Positions 397 through 34,359 of a DNA stretch of 35,721 bases are shown here, one piece after another; the stretch's first letter is position 1; every line of letters begins with the position of its first letter. A program made the position numbers and the translations under genes. The notes under the pieces are model-generated. The model did not search any database. It was not told where the DNA came from and worked only from the letters and a program-made list of their open reading frames with translations. This DNA comes from a virus (Duplodnaviria > Heunggongvirae > Uroviricota > Caudoviricetes), in IMG/VR virus record IMGVR_UViG_2874956758_000001. One strand, written 5' to 3'.

Positions 397-511
397 CAGA
401 AAACCCTCCGAGTGGTGTGTTTTTTTGCGACTACTAATCGCTTTTTTCGTGGTGGCTGAAATTTAGCCACCAATAGTAGGCACTTGTGATGAATATATTC
501 ACGATGAATTG

Positions 512-811: not shown

Positions 812-814
812 AGT

Positions 815-844
815 GTTTAGATCTCAATAGTATCTAGTTTAGAT
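815..844. promoter_or_regulatory. Candidate C-repressor operator: direct repeat GTTTAGAT at 815-822 and 837-844 (22 bp centre to centre) in the C/cox divergent promoter region
   Basis: Direct 8-bp repeats seen in sequence between divergent C and cox; P2 C operators are direct repeats flanking the early promoter. Exact operator bounds are inferred. Confidence 0.45.
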
Positions 845-925
845 GTAGATTGTTTAGTGCTTGGATGTGGGCACTAAAAGGCATTATAAGGCATTAAACG
901 CAATTCATGAGGGCTAGAGGACGAC

Positions 926-1201
926 ATGAGCAAGCAAGTAACACTTATGACTGATGCGATTCCTTATCAGGAGTTCGCAAAACTAATAGGAAAATCGACA
1001 GGAGCGGTTCGTCGGATGATCGATAAAGGAAAGTTGCCTGTAATTGATATGACCGATCCACAATCAGCTTCAGGTCGTGCTGGTGAATATTGGGTATACC
1101 TTCCGGCATGGAATAACGGACTAAAACTGGCTTATGAAAGCCGCCCTAAAGAAATTCGTGACGGCTGGTTAATGTGGTTAGGTCTCGGTGAACCACGTTA
1201 A
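926..1201 (+). CDS. cox: Cox excisionase / transcriptional regulator
   Basis: 91 aa, the size of P2 Cox; first gene of the early rightward operon opposite C. Confidence 0.85.
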   Translation: MSKQVTLMTDAIPYQEFAKLIGKSTGAVRRMIDKGKLPVIDMTDPQSASGRAGEYWVYLPAWNNGLKLAYESRPKEIRDGWLMWLGLGEPR

Positions 1202-1211
1202 GGAGAACCGT

Positions 1212-1382
1212 ATGAATGAGCCGCGTTGTATTGCTCAGTTATTGCGTAACGAAAGCCCCAGGGCGATTGACTTCACCATCACCCACGGTAAGGGGCGTAA
1301 GGGAATCATTATCCGCACCAAAAAACAGAGTCCGTTAAAGAAGGCTCTGACCTTTCTGAAAAGCCGGAGGGTCTGGAAATGA
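1212..1382 (+). CDS. Small early-operon hypothetical protein (position of P2 orf78)
   Basis: ATG at 1212 preceded by AAGGAG; the ORF-track start at 1188 lacks a ribosome-binding site. Function unknown. Confidence 0.45.
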   Translation: MNEPRCIAQLLRNESPRAIDFTITHGKGRKGIIIRTKKQSPLKKALTFLKSRRVWK

Positions 1383-1879
1383 CAGTGATGACGCTTAATC
1401 TCGTTGAAAAACAGCCAGCAGCTATGCGCCGGATAATTGGTAAGCATCTGGCCGTCCCTCGCTGGCAGGAGACATGTGATTATTATAATCAGATGATGGA
1501 GCGCGAACGGCTAACAGTTTGCTTTCATGCGCAGTTAAAACAGCGTCACGCAACGATGCGTTTTGAAGAAATGAACGACGTCGAACGTGAACGGCTGGTT
1601 TGTGCAATTGATGAATTGCGTGGGGCATTCTCAAAACGCCGTCAGGTCGGTGCAAGTGAGTATGCATATATTAGCTTTTTAACTGTCAGTCAGCGCCGTA
1701 CTTTATTTATGCACGCACGACTGACAGAAAAAGAATTTAACCAGCCATACTGGCGAATTAATGAAGAATCATGTTACTGGCGTGAAGCTTTATTCCGTGC
1801 ATTACGTGAATTATTCAGCCTGTTTGAGTATGCACCGACAATTCTGACGTCGGTAAAACCAGAGCAATATCTGCATTAA
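1379..1879 (+). CDS. B: Replication protein B (helicase-loader-like)
   Basis: 166 aa, the size and position of P2 B. Confidence 0.8.
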   Translation: MTVMTLNLVEKQPAAMRRIIGKHLAVPRWQETCDYYNQMMERERLTVCFHAQLKQRHATMRFEEMNDVERERLVCAIDELRGAFSKRRQVGASEYAYISFLTVSQRRTLFMHARLTEKEFNQPYWRINEESCYWREALFRALRELFSLFEYAPTILTSVKPEQYLH

Positions 1880-1942
1880 GTAATTAACCAGAGTTTTTAA
1901 CGCACTTAATCGTGCGGGGCTTCTTTTTGCCTGGAGAAAGTT

Positions 1943-2167
1943 ATGCATACAGTTTCTGAAAATCAGTGCGGTAAATACGCATTACTGCTGCAACAGGCCA
2001 GAACCGAAGCACAGGCCGACGCTGCGACGCGCTTTTCTTCTCATCTTGACGCCATGATTCGCCACATCACAAAGGCGGAGTTATCCCGCGTGGAGATAGT
2101 CGAGCTGCTCAGTCAGGAGTCGGAAAAATTTCACAATATCGGATTGTCTCGCGGGGAGGTGCTTTGA
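1943..2167 (+). CDS. Early-operon hypothetical protein (P2 orf80 position)
   Basis: 74-aa ORF in the early operon, translationally coupled to the next ORF. Confidence 0.5.
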
Positions 2168-2469
2168 TGTCCTGTCCTCGTTCAGTTGTATTACTGAATA
2201 ACGCCTTAAAAATCGCCGTTATGGAAAATGGTGATTTGTCTCTTATTCAACTTTGTCTTGATAAAGAAAAACGCGACATAACTGAATCTGTTATCGCGAT
2301 TTATCAGAACGAATTAAACCTCCTGTCTGATGTGGTCAATTTACTTGTGAAACGCGCTGTATTCCACAAGCAAATCTCCTCCGAGGATGAACTGACGAAA
2401 TTAACGACAGAAATCGCCAGCTATTGCGCTGATGAATTTAAGAAACTGAACGACAAAAGGAGCTGGTGA
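2164..2469 (+). CDS. Early-operon hypothetical protein (P2 orf81 position)
   Basis: 101-aa ORF overlapping its neighbours by 4 nt at both ends. Confidence 0.5.
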
Positions 2470-2693
2470 TGCCGGATAACGTAGATTTTATTCAGGAACA
2501 ACAGGCTGAATTACTGGAGCGCCAGATTAACGCGGCAAGGGGGAAACATTGCGGTGTTTCTGCGCTGGTTTGCGAAGAGTGTGACGCGCCAATACCTACT
2601 GCGCGTCGTGCGGCTTATCCGTCAGCCACGCGTTGTGTTTCCTGTCAGTCAGTCTTTGAAGCAAAAAACAAGCATTACCGGAGAATGGCATGA
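2466..2693 (+). CDS. Small C4 zinc-finger protein, TraR/DksA-like (P2 orf82 position)
   Basis: Two Cys pairs, CEECDAPIP and CVSCQ, in a 75-aa protein. Confidence 0.6.
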   Translation: MMPDNVDFIQEQQAELLERQINAARGKHCGVSALVCEECDAPIPTARRAAYPSATRCVSCQSVFEAKNKHYRRMA

Positions 2694-2965
2694 GTATTCG
2701 TATCGAAATTGGTGAACGTTATGTCGTTACCAGTGACAGCTTTCAGTTTATTCTCCACGAGAAAAAGAGAGCGGAAAGCGGTAAAAACGCCGGTCAGGAA
2801 TGGCTGGCGGTGGTTGGTTATTACCCGAAATTAATCCAGCTCGTTTCCGGCCTGATGCATCACGATATTCTGACCGGAAGCGCAAAGTCTTTTGCTGATT
2901 TAAACGCGCAGGTTGAGCAACTCAGCAAGCGTTGCTCAGAGGCTTTTGGCTCATATGGCCGTTAA
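2690..2965 (+). CDS. Early-operon hypothetical protein (P2 orf83 position)
   Basis: 91-aa ORF overlapping the start of gene A. Confidence 0.5.
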   Translation: MSIRIEIGERYVVTSDSFQFILHEKKRAESGKNAGQEWLAVVGYYPKLIQLVSGLMHHDILTGSAKSFADLNAQVEQLSKRCSEAFGSYGR

Positions 2966-5231
2966 AGCCTCCGGGCGTTTTGTCCCTCCGTCAGCATTTG
3001 CCGCAGGCATCGGTAAGATGTTTACCGGTGCTTATGCATGGAACGCACCACGCGAGGCTGTCGGGCGCGAAAGACCTCTTACACGTGATGAGATGCGTCA
3101 GGTGCAAGGTGTTTTATCCACGATTAACCGCCTGCCTTACTTTTTGCGCTCGCTGTTTACTTCACGCTATGACTACATCAGGCGCAATAAAAGCCCGGTG
3201 CACGGGTTTTATTTCCTCACATCCACTTTTCAGCGTCGTTTATGGCCGCGCATTGAGCGCGTGAATCAGCGCCATGAAATGAACACCGATGCGTCGTTGC
3301 TGTTTCTGGCAGAGCGCGACCAGTATGCGCGCCTGCCGGGAATGAATGACAAGGAGCTGAAAAAGTTTGCTGCCCGTATCTCATCGCAGCTTTTCATGAT
3401 GTATGAGGAACTCTGCGATGCCTGGGTGGATGCGCATGGCGAGAAAGAATCGCTGTTTACGGATGAGGCGCAGGCTCACCTCTATGGTCATGTTGCTGGC
3501 GCTGCACGTGCTTTCAATATTTCCCCTCTCTACTGGAAAAAATACCGTAAAGGACAGATGACCACGAGGCAGGCATATTCTGCCATTGCCCGTCTGTTTA
3601 ACGATGAGTGGTGGACTCATCAGCTTAAAGGCCAGCGTATGCGCTGGCATGAGGCGTTACTGATAGCTGTCGGGGAGGTCAATAAAGACCGTTCTCCTTA
3701 TGCCAGTAAACATGCCATTCGGGATGTGCGTGCGCGCCGCCAGGCAAATCTGGAATTTCTTAAATCGTGTGACCTTGAAAACAGGGAAACCGGCGAGCGC
3801 ATCGACCTTATCAGTAAGGTGATGGGCAGTATTTCTAATCCTGAAATTCGCCGGATGGAGCTGATGAACACCATTGCCGGTATTGAGCGTTACGCCCCCT
3901 CAGAGGGTGATGTGGGGATGTTTATCACGCTTACCGCGCCGTCAAAGTATCACCCGACACGTCAGGTTGGAAAAGGCGAAAATAAAACCGTCCAGCTTAA
4001 TCACGGCTGGAATGATGAGGCATTTAATCCAAAGGATGCGCAGCGTTATCTCTGCCGTATCTGGAGCCTGATGCGCACGGCATTCAAGGATAATGATTTA
4101 CAGGTCTACGGTTTGCGAGTCGTCGAGCCACACCACGACGGAACGCCGCACTGGCATATGATGCTTTTTTGTAATCCACGCCAGCGTAACCAGATTATCG
4201 AAATCATGCATCGCTATGCGCTCAAAGAGGATGGCGACGAAAGAGGAGCCGCGCGAAACCGTTTTCAGGCAAAACACCTTAACCGGGGCGGTGCTGCGGG
4301 ATATATCGCGAAATACATTTCAAAAAATATCGACGGCTATGCACTGGATGGTCAGCTCGATAACGATACCGGCAGACCGCTGAAAGATACTGCGGCGGCT
4401 GTTACCGCATGGGCGTCAACGTGGCGCATCCCGCAATTTAAAACGGTTGGCCTGCCGACAATGGGAGCTTACCGTGAGCTACGTAAATTGCCTCGCGGCG
4501 TCAGCATTGCTGATGAATTTGACGAACGCGTGGAGGCTGCACGCGCCGCCGCAGACAGTGGCGATTTTGCGCTGTATATCAGCGCGCAGGGCGGGGCAAA
4601 TGTCCCGCGCGATTGTCAGACTGTCAGGGTCGCCCGTAGCCCGTCGGATGACGTTAACGAATACGAGGAAGAAGTCGAGAGAGTGGTCGGCATTTACGCG
4701 CCGCATCTCGGCGCGCGTCATATTCATATCACCAGAACGACGGACTGGCGCATTGTGCCGAAAGTGCCGGTCGTTGAACCTTTGACTTTAAAAAGCGGCA
4801 TCGCCGCGCCTCGGAGTCCTGTGAATAACTGTGGAAAGCTCACCGGTGGTGATACTTCGTTACCGGCTCCCACACCTTCTGAGCACGCCGCAGCAGTGCT
4901 TAATCTGATTGATGACGGTGTTATCGAATGGAATGAGCCGGAGGTCGTGAAGGCGCTCCGGGGCGCATTAAAACACGGGCTGAGAACGCCAAACCGTCAG
5001 CAAAGAAACGGAAGCACGTTAAAACCACATGAAATTGCACCATCGGCCAGACTGAGCCGGTCGGAACGATTGCAAATCACCCGTATCCGCGTTGACCTTG
5101 CTCAGAATGGAATCTTGCCCCAGCGATGGGAGCTTGAGGCGCTGGCGCGTGGGGCAACCGTAAATTATGACGGGAAACAATTCACGTATCTGGCTGCTGA
5201 TGAGTGGCCGGGATTCTCAACAAACATATAA
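2955..5231 (+). CDS. A: Replication initiator A (rolling-circle HUH endonuclease)
   Basis: About 758 aa from ATG 2955 (MAVKASG); the ORF is open from 2913. HUH motif PHWHMMLF present; size and position match P2 gpA. Confidence 0.88.
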   Translation: MAVKASGRFVPPSAFAAGIGKMFTGAYAWNAPREAVGRERPLTRDEMRQVQGVLSTINRLPYFLRSLFTSRYDYIRRNKSPVHGFYFLTSTFQRRLWPRIERVNQRHEMNTDASLLFLAERDQYARLPGMNDKELKKFAARISSQLFMMYEELCDAWVDAHGEKESLFTDEAQAHLYGHVAGAARAFNISPLYWKKYRKGQMTTRQAYSAIARLFNDEWWTHQLKGQRMRWHEALLIAVGEVNKDRSPYASKHAIRDVRARRQANLEFLKSCDLENRETGERIDLISKVMGSISNPEIRRMELMNTIAGIERYAPSEGDVGMFITLTAPSKYHPTRQVGKGENKTVQLNHGWNDEAFNPKDAQRYLCRIWSLMRTAFKDNDLQVYGLRVVEPHHDGTPHWHMMLFCNPRQRNQIIEIMHRYALKEDGDERGAARNRFQAKHLNRGGAAGYIAKYISKNIDGYALDGQLDNDTGRPLKDTAAAVTAWASTWRIPQFKTVGLPTMGAYRELRKLPRGVSIADEFDERVEAARAAADSGDFALYISAQGGANVPRDCQTVRVARSPSDDVNEYEEEVERVVGIYAPHLGARHIHITRTTDWRIVPKVPVVEPLTLKSGIAAPRSPVNNCGKLTGGDTSLPAPTPSEHAAAVLNLIDDGVIEWNEPEVVKALRGALKHGLRTPNRQQRNGSTLKPHEIAPSARLSRSERLQITRIRVDLAQNGILPQRWELEALARGATVNYDGKQFTYLAADEWPGFSTNI

Positions 5232-5873: not shown

Positions 5874-6311
5874 CTACATCCCACAGGCCATCAATGGTAA
5901 ATGTTTTTTTTCCTTGAGTTCATCATTTATGCGTTGACATAGGGCTGTTTTGTAATCGCCTTCCCATTGTGTGTGTATCTTCCCTTGAACTCGTTGAAAC
6001 CAAATATCTAACATTTCAGTATTTGGTTGTTTACCTAGTTTACAATGAAGTTGTTGTAACTTGCCAAATTTGAGTTCATCGTCGTCATAAAGGAAGGTCA
6101 AGAGTTTTGCGAAAATAGCCATTCCCACTGGGTAGGTGGTTGGGTTTTTAGCCATGATGCTTGAAACAATTCCAAGCATTGCATCTAGTTGATGCCCACT
6201 ATTTGTGATCTTTTTCTTCCTAAATAATTTTCGCAAGAAACCATTTAAATATCTGACTGTAATTTTGGAGTTTTGATGTTTTAAAGAAAATAAATATATT
6301 GCATACAACAT
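5874..6311 (-). CDS. C-terminal fragment of the Abi-P2-like reverse transcriptase (helical C-terminal domain); frame continues from the upstream RT ORF across an A-run
   Basis: AT-rich 145-aa ORF; its frame is open upstream into the end of the RT ORF, and a third frame continues past its stop to about 5727. Confidence 0.55.
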   Translation of the reverse strand: MLYAIYLFSLKHQNSKITVRYLNGFLRKLFRKKKITNSGHQLDAMLGIVSSIMAKNPTTYPVGMAIFAKLLTFLYDDDELKFGKLQQLHCKLGKQPNTEMLDIWFQRVQGKIHTQWEGDYKTALCQRINDELKEKKHLPLMACGM

Positions 6312-6337
6312 TTTCTGTAGGGAGTTGAACGACCCTT

Positions 6338-7264
6338 CTATAATATATTCTTTTTTGCTGATTTAAGGGAGTGAAGAATGATGTCGTCATGTAGTTCTGT
6401 TTTTCTTGAGTTTAAATCAAGCCCAAACTCACCTAAGACCTCAACCAAACACTTTGAGATTTTGTCCAAATCATCTTTACTGCTTGAAAATATTCGATAA
6501 TCATCTCTGTAGCGAACTACTTTGTAATCCGTTATTTTTTGCTCTTCGGTTTTTTTTCTTAGCTGTAAATCAATTTCGCCTAAAATTAATTCGGCAAATG
6601 TATCCATCAACGTACTACCCAATGGTATTCCGTTTGTCTGATTACTCATCATCATCTGGATATGAGTGTCAATCAATCGTCCTGGGTTATTGTTATTTTC
6701 TTTCTTTTTGGCCTCTTCTTTTGAGATGAATACCCATTCAAAGCTATGAGTGTAAATAGAAGGGTAGAAGTTTGAAATGTCTGTGCTGAACATGAACTCA
6801 TACTCAAGAGCCAATGAAAGACTTTTTTGTTCAAAATCTTCCCACCAGTTTAAAACAGATGCAGCTACGTTTGAGGTGTTCTTTTTGCTCACTGGGGTAC
6901 TTGAGCATAAAAAAAGATCATTAGACTCAAACTCTCTAAATTTATTCCTTATAGCATTCCAGTTGGAAGGGGATGTAATAAGTTTACAAAAATACACGTA
7001 GTACAGAGGATTAATTAGTGTTATTCGTCGCCAGCTATATAAGCCATCTTTGCTGACTAAAACCTCGTAATTTATATTCTTCCCCATCAATGACTTGGAG
7101 TCAGGTTGGAAGTTGATTTTACCTTCATCTATCGCGGAGTTGATTTCTTCAAGCAAGGAAGAAAAATCGACATAACTGGGTAGCTCCAGAGTAGTGTATG
7201 AATCATGCTGCAGAAAATACTTAAGCGCTCTACCAGTAGTTAATTCATAAATCTTTTTCATAAT
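6338..7264 (-). CDS. Reverse transcriptase, Abi-P2 / UG-Abi class (defence-associated RT), N-terminal and catalytic part
   Basis: RT motifs seen directly: FMFSTDISNFYPSIY, GIPLGSTLMDTF, VVRYRDDYRIF (YxDD), LDLNSRKTEL. Probable start MKKIYEL at 7264; the ORF is open to 7387. AT-rich compared with phage core genes. Confidence 0.75.
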   Translation of the reverse strand: MMKKIYELTTGRALKYFLQHDSYTTLELPSYVDFSSLLEEINSAIDEGKINFQPDSKSLMGKNINYEVLVSKDGLYSWRRITLINPLYYVYFCKLITSPSNWNAIRNKFREFESNDLFLCSSTPVSKKNTSNVAASVLNWWEDFEQKSLSLALEYEFMFSTDISNFYPSIYTHSFEWVFISKEEAKKKENNNNPGRLIDTHIQMMMSNQTNGIPLGSTLMDTFAELILGEIDLQLRKKTEEQKITDYKVVRYRDDYRIFSSSKDDLDKISKCLVEVLGEFGLDLNSRKTELHDDIILHSLKSAKKNIL

Positions 7265-7467
7265 TAGTGATTTCTTCTTAAGTTGCGCACAAATAACTAC
7301 CTGTTTTCTATCATGATAACGATGCGAATGCGAGCAATTCAGGAAGTGCATTACTCTGCATCGAAGCGCACGCAAGTCAGAGAACAATAACTGCCTTGCG
7401 ACATCAGGACTGGCGCGCTAGTTGAGTGGTCATGCAACTGCATTAAAACCGCCCCATGAAGCGGGCG

Positions 7468-7655: not shown

Positions 7656-8690
7656 TCAGCCGTTGTCAGTGTCCAGTGAGTAGTTTTTAAAGCGGATGAC
7701 CTCCTGACCGAGCCAGCCGTTTATTTCCCGAATCCTGTCCTGTAACGGGATAAGCTCATTGCGGACAAAGACCTTTGCCACTTTCTCAATATCACCCAGC
7801 GACCCGACGTTCTCCGGCTTGCCGCCCATCAACTGAAAGGGGATGCGGTGCGCGTCCAGCAGGTCAGCGGCGCTGGCTTTTTTGATATTAAAAAAATCGT
7901 CCTTCGTTGCCACTTCACTGAGTGGGATAATTTTAATGCCGTCGGCTTTCCCCTGTGGGGCATAGAGAAACAGGTTTTTAAAGTTGTTGCGGCCTTTCGA
8001 CTTCACCATGTTTTCGCGGAGCATTTCGATATCGTTGCGATCCTGCACGGCATCGGTGACGTACATGATGTATCCGGCATGTGCGCCGTTTTCGTAATAC
8101 TTGCGGCGGAACAGCGTGGCTGATTCATTCAGCCAGGCAGAGTTAAGGGCGCTGAGATATTCCGGCAGGCCGTACAGCTCCTGATTGATATCCGGCTCCA
8201 GCAGGTGAAACACGGAGCCGGGCGTGAAAGGTGTTGGCTCGTTGAAGGACGGCACCCACCAGTAAATATCTTCTTCCACACCACGGCGGGTATATTTTGC
8301 CGGTGAGGTTTCCAGTCTGATGACCTTACCGGTGGTGCTGTAACGCTTTTCCAGAAACGCATTACCGAACACCAGAAAATCCAGCACAAAGCGGCTGAAA
8401 TCCTGCTGGGAAAGCCACGGATGCGGGATAAATGTCGAGGCCAGAATATTACGTTTGACGTAAATCGGGGAGCTGTGATGCACGGCAGCACGCAGGCTTT
8501 TTGCCAGACCGGTAAAGCTGACCGGTGGCTCATACCATCTGCCGTTACTGATGCACTCGACGTAATCCAGAATGTCACGGCGATCGAGTACCGGCACCGG
8601 CTCACCAAAGGTGAATGCCTCCATTTTCGGGGCGCTGGCGGTCATTGTTTTTGCCGCTGGTCGCGGTGTTTTCCCTTTTTTCTTGCTCAT
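7656..8690 (-). CDS. Q: Portal protein
   Basis: 344 aa, the size and position of P2 gpQ next to cos and upstream of P. Confidence 0.88.
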   Translation of the reverse strand: MSKKKGKTPRPAAKTMTASAPKMEAFTFGEPVPVLDRRDILDYVECISNGRWYEPPVSFTGLAKSLRAAVHHSSPIYVKRNILASTFIPHPWLSQQDFSRFVLDFLVFGNAFLEKRYSTTGKVIRLETSPAKYTRRGVEEDIYWWVPSFNEPTPFTPGSVFHLLEPDINQELYGLPEYLSALNSAWLNESATLFRRKYYENGAHAGYIMYVTDAVQDRNDIEMLRENMVKSKGRNNFKNLFLYAPQGKADGIKIIPLSEVATKDDFFNIKKASAADLLDAHRIPFQLMGGKPENVGSLGDIEKVAKVFVRNELIPLQDRIREINGWLGQEVIRFKNYSLDTDNG

Positions 8691-9208
8691 CAGTAAAACT
8701 CCAGAATGGTGGATGTCAGCGGAGTGCTGATACCGGCGGTGAGTGGCTCATTTAACAGGGCGTGCATGGTCGCCCAGGCGAGGTCGGCGTGGCTGGCTTC
8801 CTCGCTGCGGCTGGCCTCATAGGTGGCGCTGCGTCCGCTGCTGGTCATGGTCTTGCGGATAGCCATAAACGAGCTGGTGATGTCGGTGGCGCTGACGTCA
8901 TATTCCAGACAGCCACGGCGGATAACGTCTTTTGCCTTGAGCACCATTGCGGTTTTCATTTCCGGCGTGTAGCGGATATCGCGAGCGGCGGGATAGAACG
9001 AGCGCACGAGCTGGAACACACCGACACCGAGGCCGGTGGCATCAATCCCGATGTATTCGACGTTGTATTTTTCGGTGAGTTTGCGGATGGATTCTGCCTG
9101 GGTGGCAAAGTCCATGCCTTTCCACTGGTGACGCTCAAGTATTCTGAATTTGCCACCGGCCACCACCGGCGGTGCCAGCACCACGCATCCGGCGCATAGT
9201 CTTCCCAT
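8690..9208 (-). CDS. P: Terminase large subunit gpP, C-terminal (nuclease domain) portion, in a different frame from the N-terminal portion
   Basis: This frame reads GKFRILERHQWKGMDFATQAESIRKLTEKYNVEYIGIDATGLGVG; it overlaps the N-terminal ORF, whose translation degenerates into low-complexity sequence in the overlap. Confidence 0.7.
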   Translation of the reverse strand: MGRLCAGCVVLAPPVVAGGKFRILERHQWKGMDFATQAESIRKLTEKYNVEYIGIDATGLGVGVFQLVRSFYPAARDIRYTPEMKTAMVLKAKDVIRRGCLEYDVSATDITSSFMAIRKTMTSSGRSATYEASRSEEASHADLAWATMHALLNEPLTAGISTPLTSTILEFY

Positions 9209-10389
9209 TCTTCCAGCGTGTCGACCATGCAGCGTTGCAGCTCCTCGAACGGGAACACCGATGCCTTGTCGTCAACAAATTCACACATGAACAGGTTTTT
9301 AAAATCGTCGGCGCTGTTTTCGCGTTTGAGCTGCTCAATGTCGAACAGCGTGCAGCCGCCTTTCAGGGCGTCCTCAATGGTGACAATCTGCCGCCACTGG
9401 CCGTCTGCACAGAGAAGACCTCCGGCAAGGGCGTTATGACTGACGTCGATTTCCACGCGTTCGGCGGCGCTGGCGCGTCCCCGGTTGAACAGTTCACCCG
9501 ACCAGAACGGGTAGGCGTCGTGCGCCAGCGTGGACGGGGTGGAGAAATAGGTCGAGCGCAGGTGACTCTGTGAGGCCATACCTGATGCCACCTTACGCAG
9601 TACCTGAAAATTCGGGATCCAGAAAATCTCATCGACGTAAAGGTCGCCGTTATGGCTCTGTGCGGTGTTGGAGTTGGTGCCGAGAAAAATCAGTTTTGCG
9701 CCGTTATTGCCCAGGACAATCGGGTCACCGGTCAGGTCAACGTCAACCAGCCGGGCAAAGGCGATGATGTATTCACGGAACACATACGCCTGCGTTTTAC
9801 TGGCCGACAGAAAAATCTGGTTATGACCTGTTTTCAGGGCGCGCAGCAGCGCCTCGCGGGAAAAATAAAACGTTGCGCCAATCTGGCGGGATTTCAGGAT
9901 ATCGCGGATGCGGTGCTCAAGCCCGGCGCGATACCAGTGCAACTGATAGTCGAAAGACTGCTCAAAGAAAATCTGCTCCAGCTTTTCGATGGCCTCGTCA
10001 CTGAAAAAATTCTTTTTCGGTTTGCGCCGCCCGCCTTTGTTGCGGTTAGCGACGTTCGGATTAAGGTCTGCCTCGTTGCCGGTCTGACTGTAACGGTTTA
10101 CCCGTGCCAGTCGTTCAATCTGGCGTCCCAGCAGGTCAATTTCCTTGAAGTCACCGCCGGTTTTCTGCGGTTTGATGATGAGCTGGGTCAGTCGTGCTTC
10201 CAGACTCATTTCGACACGGCTGATGGGGGCAACGCTGTCCCAGCCGTCGCGCTGTTTCCAGCTCTGCACCGTCGGGCGTTTCATCTGCAACATGGCGGCA
10301 ATCTGCGGCACGGAAAACCCCTGCCAGTACAGCAGCGCCGCCTGACGACGCGGGTCGTGTAAAAGAGTGGTGTCTGTGGTGATGGTCAT
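8956..10389 (-). CDS. P: Terminase large subunit gpP (ATPase), N-terminal portion; frame lost near 9165-9195
   Basis: Probable start MTITTD at 10389 with GAGGT ribosome-binding site. Protein-like up to WEDYAPDA, then WCWHRRWW and Pro/Ser-rich nonsense. Combined span 8690-10389 is about 566 codons, against roughly 590 aa recalled for P2 gpP. Confidence 0.75.
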   Translation of the reverse strand: MTITTDTTLLHDPRRQAALLYWQGFSVPQIAAMLQMKRPTVQSWKQRDGWDSVAPISRVEMSLEARLTQLIIKPQKTGGDFKEIDLLGRQIERLARVNRYSQTGNEADLNPNVANRNKGGRRKPKKNFFSDEAIEKLEQIFFEQSFDYQLHWYRAGLEHRIRDILKSRQIGATFYFSREALLRALKTGHNQIFLSASKTQAYVFREYIIAFARLVDVDLTGDPIVLGNNGAKLIFLGTNSNTAQSHNGDLYVDEIFWIPNFQVLRKVASGMASQSHLRSTYFSTPSTLAHDAYPFWSGELFNRGRASAAERVEIDVSHNALAGGLLCADGQWRQIVTIEDALKGGCTLFDIEQLKRENSADDFKNLFMCEFVDDKASVFPFEELQRCMVDTLEEWEDYAPDAWCWHRRWWPVANSEYLSVTSGKAWTLPPRQNPSANSPKNTTSNTSGLMPPASVSVCSSSCARSIPPLAISATRRK

Positions 10390-15888: not shown

Positions 15889-16318
15889 TGCCGTCACGGT
15901 GCTGAAAACTAACCCCGATATGCTGCGGATATTCGTGGATAACGGGAGTATTGCCTCCACACTGGCGGCGTCGCTGTCATTCGAAAAGCGTTACACGCTC
16001 AATGTGATTGTGACCGACTTTACCGGTAATTTTGACCTGCTCATCGTGCCGGTGCTGGTGTGGCTGCGGGAAAATCAGCCCGACATCATGACCACCGACG
16101 AAGGTCAGAAAAAAGGTTTCACGTTTTATGCAGACATCAACAATGACAGCAGCTTTGATATCAGCATCAGCCTGATGCTGACCGAGCGAACGCTGGTCAG
16201 TGAGGTTGACGGTGCGCTGCATGTGAAGAATATCCCGGAACCTCCGACGCCGGAGCCAGTCAATCGCCCGATGGAGCTTTATATCAATGGTGAACTGGTG
16301 AGCAAGTGGGATGAATGA
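15851..16318 (+). CDS. R: Tail completion protein R
   Basis: 155 aa, the size and position of P2 gpR. Confidence 0.8.
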   Translation: MLKPDSLRRALTDAVTVLKTNPDMLRIFVDNGSIASTLAASLSFEKRYTLNVIVTDFTGNFDLLIVPVLVWLRENQPDIMTTDEGQKKGFTFYADINNDSSFDISISLMLTERTLVSEVDGALHVKNIPEPPTPEPVNRPMELYINGELVSKWDE

Positions 16319-16517
16319 GTTTAAGCGTTTTGAAGACCGGCTGACCGGACTGATTGAATCGCTGTCACCGTCTGGGCGTCGGCGACTGAGTGCAGAACTG
16401 GCGAAACGTCTGCGGCAGAGTCAGCAGCGTCGGGTGATGGCACAGAAAGCCCCGGACGGCACACCCTACGCACCACGCCAGCAGCAGAGCGCCAGAAAAA
16501 AAGACCGGTCGCGTTAA
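16311..16517 (+). CDS. S: Tail completion protein S, N-terminal portion; frame breaks at an A7 run near 16494-16500
   Basis: 68-aa ORF ending ...SARKKDRSR; removing one A from the run would read ARKKTGRVKRKMFAKLITS and join the next ORF. Combined span 16311-16764 is about 150 codons, the size of P2 gpS. Confidence 0.7.
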   Translation: MNEFKRFEDRLTGLIESLSPSGRRRLSAELAKRLRQSQQRRVMAQKAPDGTPYAPRQQQSARKKDRSR

Positions 16518-16524
16518 GCGAAAA

Positions 16525-16764
16525 ATGTTTGCGAAACTTATCACCAGTCGTTTTTTGCATATCCGCGCCAGCCCTGAACAGGCATCAATGGAGTTTTACG
16601 GCGGGAAGTCACCGAAAATCGCCAGTGTGCATCAGTTCGGTCTGTCGGAAGAAACCCGGAAAGACGGTAAGAAAAATGATTATCCGGCGCGTCCTCTGCT
16701 CGGCTTTACCGGTGAGGATGTGCAGATAATTGAAGAGATTATCCTGGCTCACCTCGACCGTTAG
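16525..16764 (+). CDS. S: Tail completion protein S, C-terminal portion
   Basis: 79-aa ORF in the frame that the upstream S fragment would enter after a 1-nt change in the A-run. Confidence 0.7.
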   Translation: MFAKLITSRFLHIRASPEQASMEFYGGKSPKIASVHQFGLSEETRKDGKKNDYPARPLLGFTGEDVQIIEEIILAHLDR

Positions 16765-19256: not shown

Positions 19257-21446
19257 ATGAGCACAAAATTCAAAACCGTTATCACCACTGCCGGTGCAGC
19301 AAAGCTGGCAGCGGCAACCGCACCGGGAGGGCGGAAGGTCAACATTACCACGATGGCCGTCGGGGATGGCGGTGGTAAATTGCCTGTCCCGGATGCCGGA
19401 CAGACCGGGCTTATCCACGAAGTCTGGCGACATACGCTGAACAAAATCAGCCAGGACAAACGAAACAGTAATTATATTATCGCAGAGCTGGTTATTCCGC
19501 CGGAGGTGGGCGGTTTCTGGATGCGTGAGCTTGGCCTGTACGATGATGCGGGAACATTAATTGCCGTGGCGAACATGGCCGAAAGTTATAAGCCAGCTCT
19601 TGCCGAAGGCTCAGGGCGTTCGCAGACCTGTCGCATGGTCATCATCGTCAGCAGTGTGGCCTCAGTGGCGCTGACCATTGACACCACAACGGTGATGGCG
19701 ACGCAGGATTACGTTGATGACAAAATTGCAGAGCATGAACAGTCACGACGTCACCCGGACGCCTCGCTGACCGCAAAAGGTTTTACTCAGTTAAGCAGTG
19801 CGACCAACAGCACGTCTGAAACACTGGCCGCAACGCCGAAAGCGGTAAAGGCCGCCTATGACCTGGCTAACGGGAAATATACCGCACAGGACGCCACCAC
19901 AGCGCGAAAAGGTCTTGTCCAGCTCAGTAGCGTCACCAACAGTGATTCTGAAACGCTGGCTGCAACGCCAAAGGCGGTAAAGGCTGCGTATGACCTTGCT
20001 AACGGGAAATACACTGCACAGGATGCCACCACGGCGCGAAAAGGGCTTGTCCAGCTCAGTAGCGCCACCAACAGTGATTCTGAAACGCTGGCCGCAACAC
20101 CAAAAGCGGTGAAGTCTGCCTATGACAATGCTGAAAAACGTCTTCAGAAAGATCAGAATGGTGCGGATATTCCGGGAAAGGATACCTTCACGAAAAATAT
20201 CGGTGCCTGTCGTGCTTATAGCGGCGCTTTGAGCACTGAAGCCGGAAACTGGACAACCGCTCAGTTTATTGAATGGCTGGATTCCCGTGGTGCATTTAAT
20301 CATCCGTACTGGATGTGCAAAGGCTCCTGGTCATATGCAAATAACAAAATCATTACGGATACCGGATGTGGTGATATCCACCTGGCTGGTTGTGTCGTCG
20401 AGGTCATGGGAACTAAATCTGCAATCACTATCCGAGTGACCACGCCGACAACATCAAGCGGTGGCGGTACAACCAGCGCGCAATTCACTTACATTAATCA
20501 TGGGGACGGCTACTCCCCCGGCTGGCGTCGTGACTGGAATCGTCAGGGCGACTCAATGACCGGAACGATTAATCAGGATGGCGGAAGCCAGAATGCCTAT
20601 ATGTCTACGGCCTTATGTTCAGGCACCAGAGGCGGCAAAAAATATCTCAGAAAGTTTCGTGGTGGAGAAGGAGACACTATCTGGCATGAAACAGTACAGG
20701 GCGGGGTAGTTCGCTGGGCGACTGGTAATACTGATGCTCAGGAAGAATTATCACTCAGCTCCGCTTATGGTCTCCGTTCAAGAGGTGAGATTACATCAAG
20801 CAGTGCTAATGGTCTGCGCATTGCTTATGGCAATTATGGATTCTTTATCAGGAATGATGGCAGCAGCACTTATTTTATGTTGACTAAATCAGGTGACAGA
20901 TTAGGTACTTATAATAATTTAAGACCACTGATTATAAATGATGCCACGGGTGCTGTATCAATGGGGCATGGCCTGAGTGTTACTGGTGATATTGTCTCAA
21001 GTACCAAAGTACGTGCCGGTAGCGGGAAAAAGTTCACGGTCAGCAGCAGCAATACATCCACGAAGGAAGCTGCATTCAATTTGTGGGGAAACTCAAGTCG
21101 TCCGGTGGTGGCTGAATTAGGTGATGATGCAGGCTGGCATTTTTACAGTCAGAGAAATACAGATAACAGCATCACTTTTGCTGTTAACGGGCAGGTATCA
21201 CCATCTAACTATAGTAATTTTGATTCACGCTATGTCCGGGATATCCGGCTTGGTGGTGCTGCCACATACAAACCTGCGAACAATGGCATGACATGGACAC
21301 ATAAGGCACCGTCCGGGTGTGTATATTCCGGCATTATTGTTCAGGATACCGGCTCAAACTCTGCCGATAACATTGGTGGCGTATATTACAGACCGGTGCA
21401 GAAATACATTAACGGGACTTGGTATAACGGTAAGCGTACAGCCTGA
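19257..21446 (+). CDS. H: Tail fibre protein H, with internal tandem repeats and a C-terminus altered by IS66 insertion
   Basis: 729 aa; the N-terminal region is typical of P2-type fibres; the last codons (GKRTA, stop) lie inside the IS66 left inverted repeat. Confidence 0.85.
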   Translation: MSTKFKTVITTAGAAKLAAATAPGGRKVNITTMAVGDGGGKLPVPDAGQTGLIHEVWRHTLNKISQDKRNSNYIIAELVIPPEVGGFWMRELGLYDDAGTLIAVANMAESYKPALAEGSGRSQTCRMVIIVSSVASVALTIDTTTVMATQDYVDDKIAEHEQSRRHPDASLTAKGFTQLSSATNSTSETLAATPKAVKAAYDLANGKYTAQDATTARKGLVQLSSVTNSDSETLAATPKAVKAAYDLANGKYTAQDATTARKGLVQLSSATNSDSETLAATPKAVKSAYDNAEKRLQKDQNGADIPGKDTFTKNIGACRAYSGALSTEAGNWTTAQFIEWLDSRGAFNHPYWMCKGSWSYANNKIITDTGCGDIHLAGCVVEVMGTKSAITIRVTTPTTSSGGGTTSAQFTYINHGDGYSPGWRRDWNRQGDSMTGTINQDGGSQNAYMSTALCSGTRGGKKYLRKFRGGEGDTIWHETVQGGVVRWATGNTDAQEELSLSSAYGLRSRGEITSSSANGLRIAYGNYGFFIRNDGSSTYFMLTKSGDRLGTYNNLRPLIINDATGAVSMGHGLSVTGDIVSSTKVRAGSGKKFTVSSSNTSTKEAAFNLWGNSSRPVVAELGDDAGWHFYSQRNTDNSITFAVNGQVSPSNYSNFDSRYVRDIRLGGAATYKPANNGMTWTHKAPSGCVYSGIIVQDTGSNSADNIGGVYYRPVQKYINGTWYNGKRTA
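19775..20135 (+). repeat. About three tandem copies of a ~120-bp (40 aa) unit inside H (motif SETLAATPKAVKAAYDLANGKYTAQDATTARKGLVQLSS)
   Basis: Near-identical protein and DNA repeats seen directly; this is a common phage tail-fibre repeat motif. Confidence 0.8.
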
Positions 21447-21499
21447 ACCGTCTGGTCAGAATCTGACGAATTAGACAAAGTGGTGTCCACCAATAAGTA

Positions 21500-21901
21500 G
21501 TGGGAACCAAAGTGTCAGATATGCAGAAAAATGTGACTCCCGGCAGGCGAAAAGGCTGCCCTAATTATCCTCCCGAATTTAAACAGCAGCTCGTTGCTGC
21601 CTCCTGTGAACCCGGGATATCCATCTCAAAACTTGCTCTTGAAAATGGCATTAACGCCAATCTGTTGTTCAAATGGCGACAACAATGGCGCGAGGGAAAG
21701 CTGCTATTACCTTCTTCAGAGAGCCCCCAGCTACTTCCTGTGACTCTCGATGCAGCTGCCGAACAGCCAGAATCGCTCGCAGAGGACCCGGAAACCCTCA
21801 GTATCAGCTGTGAGGTAACGTTCCGGCACGGGACGCTCCGCTTCAATGGCAATGTCAGCGAAAAGCTCCTGACTCTGCTGATACAGGAACTGAAGCGATG
21901 A
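21500..21901 (+). CDS. tnpA: IS66-family accessory protein TnpA (HTH)
   Basis: 133-aa first ORF of the element; exact start uncertain. Confidence 0.7.
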   Translation: MGTKVSDMQKNVTPGRRKGCPNYPPEFKQQLVAASCEPGISISKLALENGINANLLFKWRQQWREGKLLLPSSESPQLLPVTLDAAAEQPESLAEDPETLSISCEVTFRHGTLRFNGNVSEKLLTLLIQELKR

Positions 21902-22245
21902 TCCCGTTACCTTCCGGGACCAAAATTTGGCTGGTTGCCGGTATCACCGATATGAGAAATGGCTTCAACGGTCTGGCTGCGAAAGTACAGACGGCGCTGA
22001 AAGACGATCCCATGTCCGGCCATGTTTTCATTTTCCGGGGCCGCAGCGGCAGTCAGGTTAAACTGCTGTGGTCCACCGGTGACGGACTGTGCCTCCTGAC
22101 CAAACGGCTGGAGCGTGGGCGCTTCGCCTGGCCGTCAGCCCGTGATGGCAAAGTGTTCCTTACGCAGGCGCAGCTGGCGATGCTGCTGGAAGGTATCGAC
22201 TGGCGACAGCCTAAGCGGCTGCTGACCTCCCTGACCATGCTGTAA
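21898..22245 (+). CDS. tnpB: IS66-family Orf2 / TnpB
   Basis: 115 aa; start overlaps the tnpA stop; conserved IS66 Orf2-like sequence ([11 protein letters not shown]...[24 protein letters not shown]). Confidence 0.8.
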
Positions 22246-22294
22246 ATCTCTTTATCCTGGTTGTCACAGAATAAGCCCGGTAAAATACGGGCTT

Positions 22295-23827
22295 ATGAAC
22301 GACATCTCTTCTGACGACATCTTCCTGCTGAAACAGCGCCTGGCCGAACAGGAGATCCACGCCCTGCAGGAAAAGCTGAGCAACCGGGAGCGCGAAATAG
22401 ACCATCTGCAGGCGCAGCTGGATAAACTCCGCCGGATGAACTTCGGCAGTCGTTCCGAAAAAGTCTCCCGCCGTATCGCACAAATGGAAGCCGATCTGAA
22501 CCGGCTTCAGAAAGAGAGCGATACGCTGACTGGTAGGGTGTATGACCCGGCAGTACAGCGTCCGTTGCGTCAGACCCGCACCCGTAAGCCGTTCCCTGAA
22601 TCACTACCCCGTGACGAAAAGCGACTGTTGCCTGCGGCGCCGTGCTGCCCGAACTGCGGCGGTTCACTGAGCTATCTGGGCGAGGATACCGCCGAACAGC
22701 TGGAGTTGATGCGTAGTGCCTTCCGGGTTATCCGGACGGTACGGGAAAAACATGCCTGTACTCAGTGCGATGCCATCGTGCAGGCACCTGCACCTTCGCG
22801 GCCCATCGAGCGGGGTATCGCCGGACCGGGGCTGCTGGCCCGCGTGCTGACCTCGAAGTATGCAGAGCACACCCCGCTGTATCGCCAGTCAGAAATATAC
22901 GGCCGGCAAGGTGTGAAGCTGAGCCGTTCACTGCTGTCGGGCTGGGTGGATGCATGCTGCCGGCTGCTGTCTCCGCTGGAAGAGGCGCTTCATGGCTATG
23001 TCATGACTGACGGCAAACTCCATGCTGATGATACCCCGGTCCAGGTACTGATGCCGGGTAATAAGAAGACGAAGACCGGGCGGTTGTGGGCGTATGTTCG
23101 TGATGACCGCAATGCCGGGTCAGCGTTGGCACCTGCAGTGTGGTTCGCTTACAGCCCGGACAGAAAAGGCATCCATCCGCAGACTCATCTTGCTTGCTTC
23201 AGCGGTGTGCTGCAAGCGGATGCGTACGCCGGGTTCAACGAGCTGTACCGCAATGGTGGGATAACGGAAGCTGCCTGCTGGGCTCATGCCCGCCGAAAGA
23301 TCCACGATGTGCACGTCCGCATCCCGTCAGCACTGACGGAAGAAGCCCTGGAGCAGCTCGGTCAGTTGTACGCCATAGAGGCGGATATAAGGGGAATGCC
23401 GGCAGAGCAGCGGCTTGCTGAACGTCAGCGAAAAACGAAACCGCTGTTGAAATCCCTGGAAAGCTGGTTGCGTGAAAAGATGAAGACCCTGTCGCGACAC
23501 TCAGAGTTGGCGAAGGCGTTCGCGTACGCACTTAACCAGTGGCCGGCACTGACGTACTATGCGAACGATGGCTGGGTGGAAATCGACAACAACATCGCTG
23601 AAAATGCCCTGCGGGCGGTCAGTCTGGGTCGTAAAAACTTCCTGTTCTTCGGCTCTGACCATGGTGGTGAGCGGGGAGCGCTACTGTACAGCCTGATCGG
23701 GACGTGCAAACTGAATGACGTGGATCCAGAAAGCTACCTTCGCCATGTGCTTGGCGTCATAGCAGACTGGCCGGTCAACCGGGTCAGCGAACTGCTTCCG
23801 TGGCGCATAGCACTGCCAGCTGAATAA
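22295..23827 (+). CDS. tnpC: IS66-family transposase TnpC
   Basis: 510 aa; N-terminal coiled coil, Cys cluster (CPNCG...CTQC), DDE-type core; ends just inside the right inverted repeat. Confidence 0.85.
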
Positions 23828-23889
23828 CACATCCCCGTCAATACGGCCCTCGCTGTACGCTTACGTATAACGTGGCGCAGGTATAATTT

Positions 23890-24417
23890 ATGCAGCATTT
23901 GATAAATATAACGGCAGGTAATCCAAAAACGGTTGAACAATATCAATTGACAAAGGACTTTGATGTTGTCTGGTTTTTTTCAGAAGATGGTAAGAACTGG
24001 TACGAAGAACAAAAGTATTTTGCTGATGACACGATAAAAATAGCGTGCGACAAAGATAATATTATCCGCTATGTGGAAAAGGATGTGACAGCTATCAGAC
24101 CGGATGGATTAAGTGTTGTTGAAGTGCCGGATATTACTGCTAACCGACGGGCGGACATTTCAGGGAACTGGATGTTTAAGGACGGTACAGTGATTAAACG
24201 CATTTATACGGCAGAGGAATTGCAGCAGCAGGCAGAAAATCGGAAAGCCAGACTTCTTGCAGATGCTGAATCCGTGATTTTGCCGCTGGAGCGCGCTGTC
24301 AGGCTGAATATGGCAACAGATGAGGAGCGCAGTCGACTGGAGGCATGGGAACGCTACAGTGTTCTGGTCAGTCGTGTGGATCCTGCAAATCCTGAATGGC
24401 CGGAAATGCCGCAATAA
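23890..24417 (+). CDS. G: Tail fibre assembly chaperone
   Basis: 175 aa, the size of P2 gpG; now separated from H by the IS66 element. Confidence 0.8.
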
Positions 24418-24509
24418 GTTGTATGAGCTTACATATCTATTGCGTAGAGTAAAGCATAATCTGACAGTCCGCTCTGTGCCAGAAGCGGACATAGCAGGTG
24501 GATTTGCCC

Positions 24510-25415
24510 CTATATTTCCAGACATCTGTTATCACTTAACCCATTACAAGCCCGCTGCCGCAGATATTCCCGTGGCGAGCGATAACCCAGCGCACTATGC
24601 GGATGCCATTCGTTATAATGCTCGAACGCCTCTGCAAGGTTCTTTGCTGCCGTTAACCCGTCTGGTTTGGGCATGATACTGATGTAGTCACGCTTTATCG
24701 TTTTCACGAAGCTCTCTGCTATTCCGTTACTCTCCGGACTCCGCACCGCCGTGTTCTTCGGTTCAAGTCCCAACATCCGGGCGAACTGGCGTGTTTCATT
24801 AGCCCGGTAGCATGAACCATTATCCGTCAGCCACTCCACTGGAGACGACGGAAGATCGTTGCCGAAGCGGCGTTCCACCGCTCCCAGCATGACGTCCTGT
24901 ACTGTTTCACTGTTGAAGCCGCCGGTAGTCACCGCCCAGTGCAGTGCCTCACGATCACAGCAGTCCAGCGCGAACGTGACACGCAGTCTCTCTCCGTTAT
25001 CACAGCAGAACTCGAACCCGTCAGAGCACCATCGCTGATTGCTTTCTTTCACGGCCACTCTGCCTGTATGTGCCCGTTTCGATGGCGGTACAGCAGGTTT
25101 TCGCTCAAGCAACAGCGCATTCTGGCGCATGATCCGGTAAACACGTTTGGCATTGATCGCAGGCATACCATCAAGTTCTGCCTGTCTGCGAAGCAGCGCC
25201 CATACCCGACGATAACCATACGTGGGCAGCTCTCCGATAACATGGTGTATACGGAGAAGCACATCCGTATCATCAGTGTGACGACTGCGGCGGCCATCCA
25301 TCCAGTCATCGGTTCGTCTGAGAATGACGTGCAACTGCGCACGCGACACCCGGAGACAACGGCTGACTAAGCTTACTCCCCATCCCCGGGCAATAAGGGC
25401 GCGTGCGCTATCCAC
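24510..25415 (-). CDS. insD: IS2 transposase OrfB (DDE integrase-like); expressed as an InsCD fusion by -1 frameshift
   Basis: 301 aa, recognised as IS2 InsD. Confidence 0.9.
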
Positions 25416-25738
25416 TTTTTTGCCCGTCCATATTCAACGGCTTCTTTGAGGAGTTCATTTTCCATCGTTTTCTTGCCGAGCAGGCGCTGGAGTTCTTTAA
25501 TCTGCTTCATGGCGGCAGCAAGTTGAGAGGCAGGAACAACCTGTTCTCCGGCGGCCACAGCAGTAAGACTTCCTTCCTGGTATTGCTTACGCCAGAGAAA
25601 TAACTGGCTGGCTGCTACACCATGTTGCCGGGCAACGAGGGAGACCGTCATCCCCGGTTCAAAGCTCTGCTGAACAATTGCGATCTTTTCCTGTGTGGTA
25701 CGCCGTCTGCGTTTCTCCGGCCCTAAGACATCAATCAT
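25373..25738 (-). CDS. insC: IS2 OrfA (HTH regulator)
   Basis: 121 aa from [13 protein letters not shown]; overlaps the insD start. Confidence 0.9.
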
Positions 25739-25901
25739 CTGTTCTCCAATGACTAGTCTAAAAACTAGTATTAAGACTATCACTTATTTAAGTGATACTG
25801 GTTGTCTGGAGATTCAGGGGGCCAGTCTAGCAGGTGCCAGATGCATTTGTTATTCTTCATTGAATTGAGCAGTATCCTTAACAGGAACTCTGAATACATA
25901 A

Positions 25902-26540
25902 ATGAAGATGAAAAACATGTCTGAAGTGTTGACCCAAGAAAAGCTTATTTTTGTTGCCCAGAGACTAAAGGCCCTCGCGCAGTCAGGCCTGACCTATTCA
26001 AAAGACGTCTTTGACAAGGAACGCTATGAAGCCTTGCGTGAAATTGCCGCTGGACTGCTGAGTTCGCAGTTTGATATTAGCCGCAATGATTTGTTTCATG
26101 TATCGGAAACGGGTTACGCGACGCCCAAAACAGATGTGCGTGCGTTTATCCTGCGTAATAATCGTATTCTGATGGTGAAAGAGGCTGCAGATGGATTATG
26201 GAGTCTTCCTGGCGGATGGGCAGATGTTGGAGATACACCTTCTGAAGCTGTGCGTCGAGAGGTCGAAGAAGAAACCGGATTAAAAGTCAGAGTGACTAAA
26301 CTATTGGGAGTTTGGGATCGTAATCTTCACGGCCATCCGCCTTTACCCTGGCATGTTTACAAGCTGATTTTTCTCTGTGAAGAAGTAGGTGGCAGCCTGT
26401 CAATCAGCCATGAGTCACTCGATGCTGATTTTTTTGATGTCAACGACCTGCCTGAATTGTCGCTTTCAAGAATTGTGCCTGAGCAGATTGCTGTCAGCCT
26501 GAGAGTAGCGAAAGGTGATGAAAAAACATGGTTTGATTAA
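25902..26540 (+). CDS. NUDIX hydrolase with an N-terminal helical extension
   Basis: NUDIX box GGWADVGDTPSEAVRREVEEETG (Gx5Ex7REUxEExGU pattern) in the C-terminal half of a 212-aa protein; first gene of a two-gene cassette in the G-FI variable locus. Confidence 0.8.
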   Translation: MKMKNMSEVLTQEKLIFVAQRLKALAQSGLTYSKDVFDKERYEALREIAAGLLSSQFDISRNDLFHVSETGYATPKTDVRAFILRNNRILMVKEAADGLWSLPGGWADVGDTPSEAVRREVEEETGLKVRVTKLLGVWDRNLHGHPPLPWHVYKLIFLCEEVGGSLSISHESLDADFFDVNDLPELSLSRIVPEQIAVSLRVAKGDEKTWFD

Positions 26541-26563
26541 CTTTCTTCTGCAACCATTAAGGA

Positions 26564-27208
26564 ATGGCAATGATATTCAACGCTAAGGGTTTTTTATTCG
26601 ATATGGACGGTACGCTGGTTGATTCAACAGCCGTAGTGGAAAGCGTCTGGAGAGATTTTTGTGCAGAATACGGTCTTGATTCTCAGGCTGTGATTGCTTA
26701 CGCACACGGGCGGCAAACGATTGATACACTAACGCATTTTATTGGTGCAGGTGAGAAAACCAATAAAATCGCGGCCTCACTCGAAGAGGTTGAAATCAAC
26801 ACGACAGAAGGCGTTACTGAAGTAAAAGGGGCCGCTGCACTCTTATCAAAACTGCCACCGGATAGCTGGGCACTTGTCACTTCTGCAGGCAGAATGCTTG
26901 CCGAAAACAGGATGAAAGCGGCTAATCTCCCCTTACCCATAGTAATGGTGTGTGCAGAAGATGTAATGACGGGAAAACCAAGTCCCGAGGGTTACATCAA
27001 AGCAGCTTTGGCTTTGGGCCTTGAGCCTGGTGAATGCGTGGTATTTGAGGATGCATCTGCGGGTATAAAAGCAGGGCTGGCAAGTGGAGCTTCGGTAATA
27101 GCTGTTCAGCCTGACGCTCTGGGATCATCTGAAGCCCATGCCGTCAGCGAACTGTCTGACATTATGGTCAAGATTTCCGGAGAACGTTTCAATATCATCT
27201 GTGGTTAA
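26564..27208 (+). CDS. HAD-superfamily hydrolase (subfamily IA phosphatase / beta-phosphoglucomutase-like)
   Basis: HAD motif I FDMDGTLVDS, motif II LVTSAG, motif IV FEDASAGIKAG; 23 bp downstream of the NUDIX gene. True start may be the second ATG at 26570. Confidence 0.8.
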   Translation: MAMIFNAKGFLFDMDGTLVDSTAVVESVWRDFCAEYGLDSQAVIAYAHGRQTIDTLTHFIGAGEKTNKIAASLEEVEINTTEGVTEVKGAAALLSKLPPDSWALVTSAGRMLAENRMKAANLPLPIVMVCAEDVMTGKPSPEGYIKAALALGLEPGECVVFEDASAGIKAGLASGASVIAVQPDALGSSEAHAVSELSDIMVKISGERFNIICG

Positions 27209-34187: not shown

Positions 34188-34214
34188 TAAAAAATAAGCC
34201 CGTGTAAGGGAGAT
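34188..34214. other. attR: Prophage right attachment core (P2-type 27-bp att core AAAAAATAAGCCCGTGTAAGGGAGATT)
   Basis: String matches my recollection of the P2 att core; lies between ogr and the first host gene, where attR is expected. Confidence 0.65.
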
Positions 34215-34359
34215 TACACAGGCTAAGGAGGTGGTTCCTGGTACAGCTAGCATTTTATGGGTTATGTTTTTCAGCGAAATGGATGATAACCTTAATAAAT
34301 GCAGCTGTATGTGATCGGTTTCTAAGAATTTTCCATCCGGGAAAAATAATCGAAATTAA

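Follow-up and report, generated by a model that had tools for sequence, protein, structure and literature searches.

Analysis of a 35,721-nt stretch of viral DNA (IMG/VR record IMGVR_UViG_2874956758_000001; hereafter the window) revealed that its tail-fibre gene H has very probably been interrupted by transposition of the insertion sequence (IS) ISEc8, as one lesion of a decaying Shigella dysenteriae prophage. In the course of events that we propose, ISEc8, encoding the DDE transposase TnpC and the accessory proteins TnpA and TnpB, would have transposed into codon 726 of H in a P2-like (Peduovirus-type) prophage integrated at the cyaR/yegQ–yegR site of S. dysenteriae, and staggered target cleavage followed by gap repair would have duplicated 8 bp, GTATAACG.

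The element spans 2435 bp (positions 21430–23864, plus strand, in the same orientation as H and the tail-fibre assembly gene G) and lies between two copies of GTATAACG, the left at 21422–21429 and the right at 23865–23872, both of which directly adjoin its ends. A first-pass annotation, made from the letters of the window alone, had described a perfect 8-bp flanking duplication, and this holds: GTATAACG occurs exactly twice in the whole window (chance expectation, 0.45 copies), and the probability that 8 nt agree by chance at two given places is 4^-8 (~1.5 × 10^-5). The terminal inverted repeats (left, 21430–21451, +; right, 23843–23864, +), GTAAGCGTACAGC and GCTGTACGCTTAC, match at 13 of 13 positions, the length given in the first-pass annotation, and at 18 of 22 when extended. 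Both arms have the form that we take to be typical of the IS66 family, i.e. imperfect terminal repeats of ~20 bp starting with GTAAGCG. Between them, three open reading frames (ORFs) follow each other on the same strand: tnpA (21521–21901, +; 126 aa from its ATG), tnpB (21898–22245, +; 115 aa), which overlaps tnpA by the ATGA at 21898–21901, and the DDE transposase gene tnpC (22295–23827, +; 510 aa), every one of them unbroken. The tnpA product matched Pfam HTH_Tnp_1 and NCBIfam NF047595 (IS66-like accessory TnpA), that of tnpB TnpB_IS66 (PF05717; 1.2e-38) and NF033819 (120 bits vs. a cut-off of 50), and that of tnpC DDE_Tnp_IS66 (PF03050; 4.7e-107) and NF033517 (459 bits vs. a cut-off of 180), in addition to zf-IS66, LZ_Tnp_IS66 and DDE_Tnp_IS66_C (PF13005, PF13007, PF13817). 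The NCBIfam models IS66_TnpA, IS66_TnpB and transpos_IS66 thus each scored above their curated cut-offs. ORF order, domains, terminal repeats and target duplication all place the element in the IS66 family, of which an 8-bp target duplication and a three-ORF organisation are reported hallmarks (PMC6778807).

A megablast search found the element in 4230 of 5426 complete E. coli genomes. The best matches, 99.3–99.4% identical over the full length, were annotated as 'IS66-like element ISEc8 family transposase' together with tnpA and tnpB, and it is from these copies, named by RefSeq/PGAP, that the name ISEc8 is taken. The ISEc8 of E. coli O157:H7, O145:H28 and O121:H19 and of many plasmids shows 99.4% nucleotide identity over its full length and shares the terminal repeats, the tnpA-tnpB-tnpC order, the ATGA overlap and the 8-bp target duplication. 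For instance, the copies in E. coli 13E0725 and TK3046 have the same ends and perfect 8-bp duplications of their own, ATTAATGA and TAAGAAAT. These other copies have the canonical length of 2442 bp. Aligned to that of 13E0725, which served as the reference, the 2435-bp copy lacks 1 bp of the untranslated leader (~21491), has a 6-bp in-frame deletion in tnpC (22353) that removes Ala-Leu at residues 21–22, and carries eight substitutions, of which two are non-synonymous and both lie in tnpC; TnpA and TnpB are identical to their canonical counterparts, whereas TnpC has 510 instead of 512 aa. The 510-aa TnpC is represented by at least four protein accessions of a single S. dysenteriae assembly; it is therefore multicopy there and has evidently spread inside that genome, and the 2435-bp variant is apparently the form that ISEc8 takes in S. 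dysenteriae. With a complete structure, both ends intact, the identity of ISEc8 and flanking 8-bp duplications, arrival by ordinary transposition follows; nothing that we found contradicts this structural claim. This is a known IS acting by a known mechanism on a well-known gene and prophage type, that is, ordinary genome decay.

In its interrupted form, H (19257–21446, +) encodes 729 aa with the terminus ...WYNGKRTA and stops at a TGA (21444–21446) within the left inverted repeat, as had been read from the sequence originally; codons 1–725 are native, and the last five (GKRTA) plus the TGA come from the left end of ISEc8. When the IS and one repeat copy were deleted in silico, H ran into ...YINGTWYNVAQV, followed by TAA, TTT and the ATG of G. 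The restored protein thus ends ...WYNVAQV, with the insertion having replaced VAQV by GKRTA, and the displaced native 3′ end (G-TG GCG CAG GTA TAA, encoding VAQV and the stop; 23872–23886, +) now lies beyond the element, where it carries the AGG Shine-Dalgarno motif of G.

Existing sequences match this reconstruction. At least 80% of the length of a 1400-bp reconstructed empty site was found in 183 complete E. coli genomes, annotated there as 'tail fiber protein' and 'tail fiber assembly protein', and a 395-bp version matched isolated Peduovirus phages (P2_4C9, 10W, 11W, P22H1 and others) unbroken at 97–98% identity, with 24 phage records covering at least 80% of it. In phage P2_4C9 (NC_049388), the junction reads ...tggtataacgtggcgcaggtataatttatgcag and holds a single copy of GTATAACG; in the prophage of E. 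coli 89-3156, H ends ...PSGCVYSGIIVQDTGSNSADNIGGVYYRPVQKYINGTWYNVAQV and the junction DNA equals the reconstruction. The empty junction is hence base-for-base as reconstructed in both (GTATAACGTGGCGCAGGTATAATTTATG). The H and G proteins of 89-3156 are ~99% identical to those of the window, but its junction lacks the IS. The comparison with uninterrupted P2-like junctions that had been suggested as a check on the first-pass annotation therefore bears out its restored H terminus and the stop 3 nt before G.

Over 14.2 kb, the window is base-for-base identical to S. dysenteriae CP026831.1 (GCA_002950055.1). The exact interrupted H protein, deposited as WP_128880310.1 (tail fiber protein [Shigella dysenteriae]), also occurs in GCA_031665835.1, which differs by three single-nucleotide polymorphisms (SNPs), all within IS copies. 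Given the multiple copies of ISEc8 in this genome and the well-known tendency of repeats to cause misassembly, one could imagine that a copy had merely been misplaced between H and G by an assembler. The likelihood of such an artefact is close to nil: two chromosome-scale assemblies, independent of each other and distinguished by SNPs, show the same junctions, and several Illumina-based Logan read-set assemblies contain the interrupted H on contigs that break at the repeat, 11 bp beyond the new stop. In the draft assembly GCA_053979195.1, a 627-bp contig carrying only G corresponds essentially to the unique stretch that separates ISEc8 from an IS2 copy downstream. A misjoin, moreover, would not create the perfect 8-bp duplication at the element's edges. 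The agreement between assemblies, the places where contigs break and the target duplication show the insertion to be real; it is inherited, and fixed, in a small S. dysenteriae lineage. Its exact junction gave no match in the GTDB species-representative genomes, among which this lineage is probably not represented. A literature search for CP026831 returned nothing, and the literature searched contained no description of this specific insertion.

Occupied H-G sites were absent from all 5426 complete E. coli genomes, and the sole ISEc8 near H-G among them lies in TK3046 (locus L001, 5008–7449). This copy, of the canonical 2442 bp and in the same orientation, resides in a related P2-like prophage, less than 1.3 kb from the corresponding position, and is flanked by its perfect duplication TAAGAAAT, but it occupies the intergenic cargo region downstream of G (the G-FI spacer), leaves H and G untouched and represents an independent event. 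With only this one E. coli copy nearby, the idea of the H-G junction as an insertion hotspot was rejected. A candidate second case, the homologue P0026 (...WYN-RSERLI), diverges from H at the same codon; its DNA showed a 1-bp insertion and no IS. In this locus (L010, 5001–5309), a degraded fibre gene beside resolvase (invertase-like) fragments ends ...INGTWYNRSERLI due to the 1-bp insertion (tggtataatCgtagcg), which falls on the codon corresponding to the ISEc8 site, a coincidental agreement.

H is 98.9% identical at the amino acid level to H of 89-3156 and possesses the Pfam domains Phage_tail_fib, Phage_fiber_2 and Gp34_trimer. Its tip is homologous to the fibre protein S of phage Mu (PDB 5YVQ, E = 6.9e-28), with the alignment extending across ...RPVQKxINGTWYNVA as far as the insertion point. 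The terminus N-V-[A/S]-[Q/S]-[V/I/M] is shared by more than 40 homologous tips whose receptor-binding cores differ considerably, and the valine after N (V157) is at least 90% conserved; these homologues, obtained with a 100-aa query, are mostly short partial proteins, adequate for C-terminal statistics rather than a balanced sample. None of the 40-odd tips ends like interrupted H, i.e. the observation that the first-pass annotation had named as speaking against an insertion, relatives with the same terminus and no IS, was not made among them. Conservation of the terminus across otherwise differing tips argues that the tail of H matters. In the summary of North et al. 2019 given in PMC9608196, tail-fibre assembly (TFA) chaperones are described as binding the distal fibre. 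To judge from sequence, the altered C-terminus of H may impair folding of the fibre or its interaction with the chaperone.

The shaft of H also varies. The 729-aa protein of the window has three Phage_fiber_2 repeat units (44-aa period), compared to four in 89-3156 (L002, 2496–4814; 772 aa) and TK3046 (L001, 1496–3790; 764 aa), differences that reflect variation in repeat number.

G itself (23890–24417, +; 175 aa) is intact, with a match to Pfam Caudo_TAP (1.5e-33) and 98.9% identity to G of 89-3156. H and G are now 2443 bp apart, and the native 3-nt spacing between H stop and G start has given way to a 62-nt gap between the tnpC stop and the G start, whereby translational coupling of the two genes is lost. 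Because the right copy of the duplication reconstitutes the native sequence in front of G, including the AGG Shine-Dalgarno motif at about –10, G retains its own ribosome-binding site. A scan of positions 21200–24600, a crude consensus search, predicted neither a terminator nor a promoter on the plus strand. The first-pass annotation had made expression of G dependent on read-through or on a promoter within the IS, and the former alternative fares better: with the IS co-oriented with the H-G operon, read-through from the upstream late promoter is a plausible and the likely route, while no outward promoter of the IS is predicted. A TATAAT at 23882–23887, considered as part of an outward or hybrid promoter for G, is separated from the ATG by just 2 nt, finds no usable –35 element in the end of the IS and was discarded as an origin of G mRNA. 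In our proposal, G would still be transcribed by late-operon read-through across ISEc8 and translated from its own ribosome-binding site, uncoupled from H.

The same co-orientation suggests a more elaborate scenario, in which late transcription of the Ogr-activated operon V-W-J-I-H-G would enter tnpA-tnpB-tnpC and then G, thereby tying bursts of ISEc8 transposase to prophage activation. Should this scenario, to which we give a small chance, be true, the TnpC-deletion variant of ISEc8 would be a prophage-triggered contributor to IS expansion in S. dysenteriae.

How much the change in H can still matter depends on the rest of the prophage. Its genes follow the order of P2, int-C-cox-B-A ... Q-P / O-N-M-L-X-Y-K-lysABC-R-S-V-W-J-I-H-G ... 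FI-FII-E-T-U-D-ogr. All proteins of the intact 89-3156 prophage except two cargo genes map collinearly onto the window with 89–100% identity, and both prophages occupy one integration site, marked by yegQ and CyaR at the flanks. A check for intact essential genes found P, S and int broken in addition to the IS-terminated H. Compared to 89-3156, the terminase ATPase gene P (8690–10389, −) has a 73-bp deletion at ~9193/9194, causing a frameshift after codon 402 and rendering it a pseudogene. The tail completion gene S (16311–16764, +) has seven instead of six adenines near 16496 and hence a +1 frameshift; as S is likewise split, into calls of 68 and 58 aa, in an Illumina-derived Logan assembly, this is probably real and no long-read homopolymer error. 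In the window, int (1–396, −) is a fragment of 131 codons that breaks off at the window edge. Its codons 127–289 and 284–337 follow in CP026831.1 (L008, 7001–11183) beyond IS-sized insertions, the gene being split by IS elements; the genes called there include two for transposases, one DDE_Tnp_1/DUF4096 and one of the IS3 family (HTH_Tnp_1 + rve). The cargo between A and Q, a defence reverse transcriptase gene of the AbiP2 type (5874–7387, −; PADLOC, 1.7e-120), is divided into two ORFs by 1-bp deletions in T-runs at ~5903 and ~6350; its intact form in E. coli HKUOPY1 has 514 aa, and the split was again seen in Illumina-derived assemblies.

Finally, an IS2 element (IS3 family; 24499–25829, −) sits ~80 bp downstream of G in the spacer between G and the cargo. 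It has the features of IS2, namely 1331 bp, orfA and orfB, and a 5-bp duplication, GCAGG (24494–24498 and 25830–25834), and its transposase TnpB scored 727 bits against NF006918 (cut-off 597). G thus has a different IS element on either side. That the two might form a composite transposon around G was considered and discarded, as their types differ (ISEc8 and IS2) and each has its own intact duplication.

ISEc8 in H thus counts among at least eight lesions that inactivate or disrupt parts of the prophage. That the prophage has sat long enough to collect insertion sequences, as the first-pass annotation put it, agrees with the further IS elements found, although this wording understates the damage to P, S, int and the AbiP2 gene. 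Judged from its gene content, the prophage is predicted to be unable to make infectious particles. Since defects already affect packaging, completion of the tail and excision, any effect on the fibre is moot for phage production. Only four residues of H are replaced, none of them in a predicted strand, and G is intact, so that one might regard the new terminus as a cosmetic, tolerated polymorphism of a live phage. The 73 bp missing from the frameshifted P, the frameshift in S and the three pieces of int make this highly improbable, and as the splits of S and the AbiP2 gene recur in Illumina-derived assemblies, they do not represent long-read homopolymer errors.

We therefore favour the reading of ISEc8 transposition as one step in the decay of the prophage, against which some points nevertheless weigh. 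In an AlphaFold monomer model of the tip (moderate confidence; mean pLDDT 61.7, with 75–88 for the last 20 residues), T-W-Y-N falls into the final β-strand and the replaced VAQV outside regular secondary structure, and on this model the substitution by GKRTA could be tolerated. Rho-dependent polarity is possible in the untranslated gaps of 75, 49 and 62 nt and might curtail the read-through assumed for G. Lastly, ISEc8 may have arrived before any other lesion, when the prophage still functioned. A genome intermediate between the P deletion and the IS insertion, by which the two could be dated, was sought with a 70-bp deletion-junction query and was not among the 12 records listed of 1512 matching E. 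coli records; in all 12, P is undeleted and the query aligned in two pieces.

Alternatively, the insertion may have been selected for its function, either by disabling a tailocin-like fibre or by placing the transposase genes under the Ogr-dependent late promoter with G expression kept. The orientation of the IS with the late operon, preservation of G and its ribosome-binding site and the want of a predicted terminator fit this idea, as do the regulators C, cox and ogr, which, like B, are 99–100% identical to those of an intact prophage. Nothing specific beyond orientation, however, speaks for such rewiring. Orientation alone has a prior of 50%, and the remaining particle machinery is broken by the P deletion and the S frameshift. 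Several other IS elements and indels in the same prophage fit random decay, and the site holds no independent IS in the 5426 E. coli genomes, the P0026 look-alike being a 1-bp frameshift. We consider selection very unlikely and propose that the insertion would rather represent selectively neutral decay of the kind typical for IS-expanded Shigella genomes.

Shigella is famous as a genus for IS-mediated gene decay. Within it, the interrupted H gene provides a clean example of how IS expansion erodes prophages. Hawkey et al. 2020 (PMC7373316) count both ISEc8 and IS2 in the six IS types that they list for S. dysenteriae Sd197, likewise an IS-rich Shigella genome with both elements; the word 'prophage' has no occurrence in that study of IS-driven pseudogenisation in Shigella.

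For annotation, the insertion explains the aberrant C-terminus of WP_128880310.1; H merits a flag as IS-disrupted and the prophage one as defective, and the H-G junction offers a possible marker by which to recognise this clade of S. dysenteriae as a lineage. Beyond annotation, the finding carries little weight, with no new biology of IS66 elements or P2 tail fibres. The first-pass annotation proved right in its description, with all its features at the coordinates given, and in its interpretation as far as this went. What is added to it is the name of the element, the host lineage, the co-orientation of the IS, the ribosome-binding site kept by G, the conservation of the replaced residues and the other lesions.

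Among the neighbouring features, the cargo between G/IS2 and FI (25902–27208, +) encodes a NUDIX hydrolase (Nudix_N) and a HAD-family sugar-phosphatase-like protein, a pair that sits in a hotspot of the P2 Z/fun type; the NUDIX protein weakly matches the PADLOC candidate defence family PDC-S07 (6.6e-10). Between ogr and yegQ lies a full-length gene for the small RNA CyaR (RyeE; 34192–34277, −; Rfam RF00112, 100.7 bits), which, beside the right end of the prophage, probably marks the attachment site.

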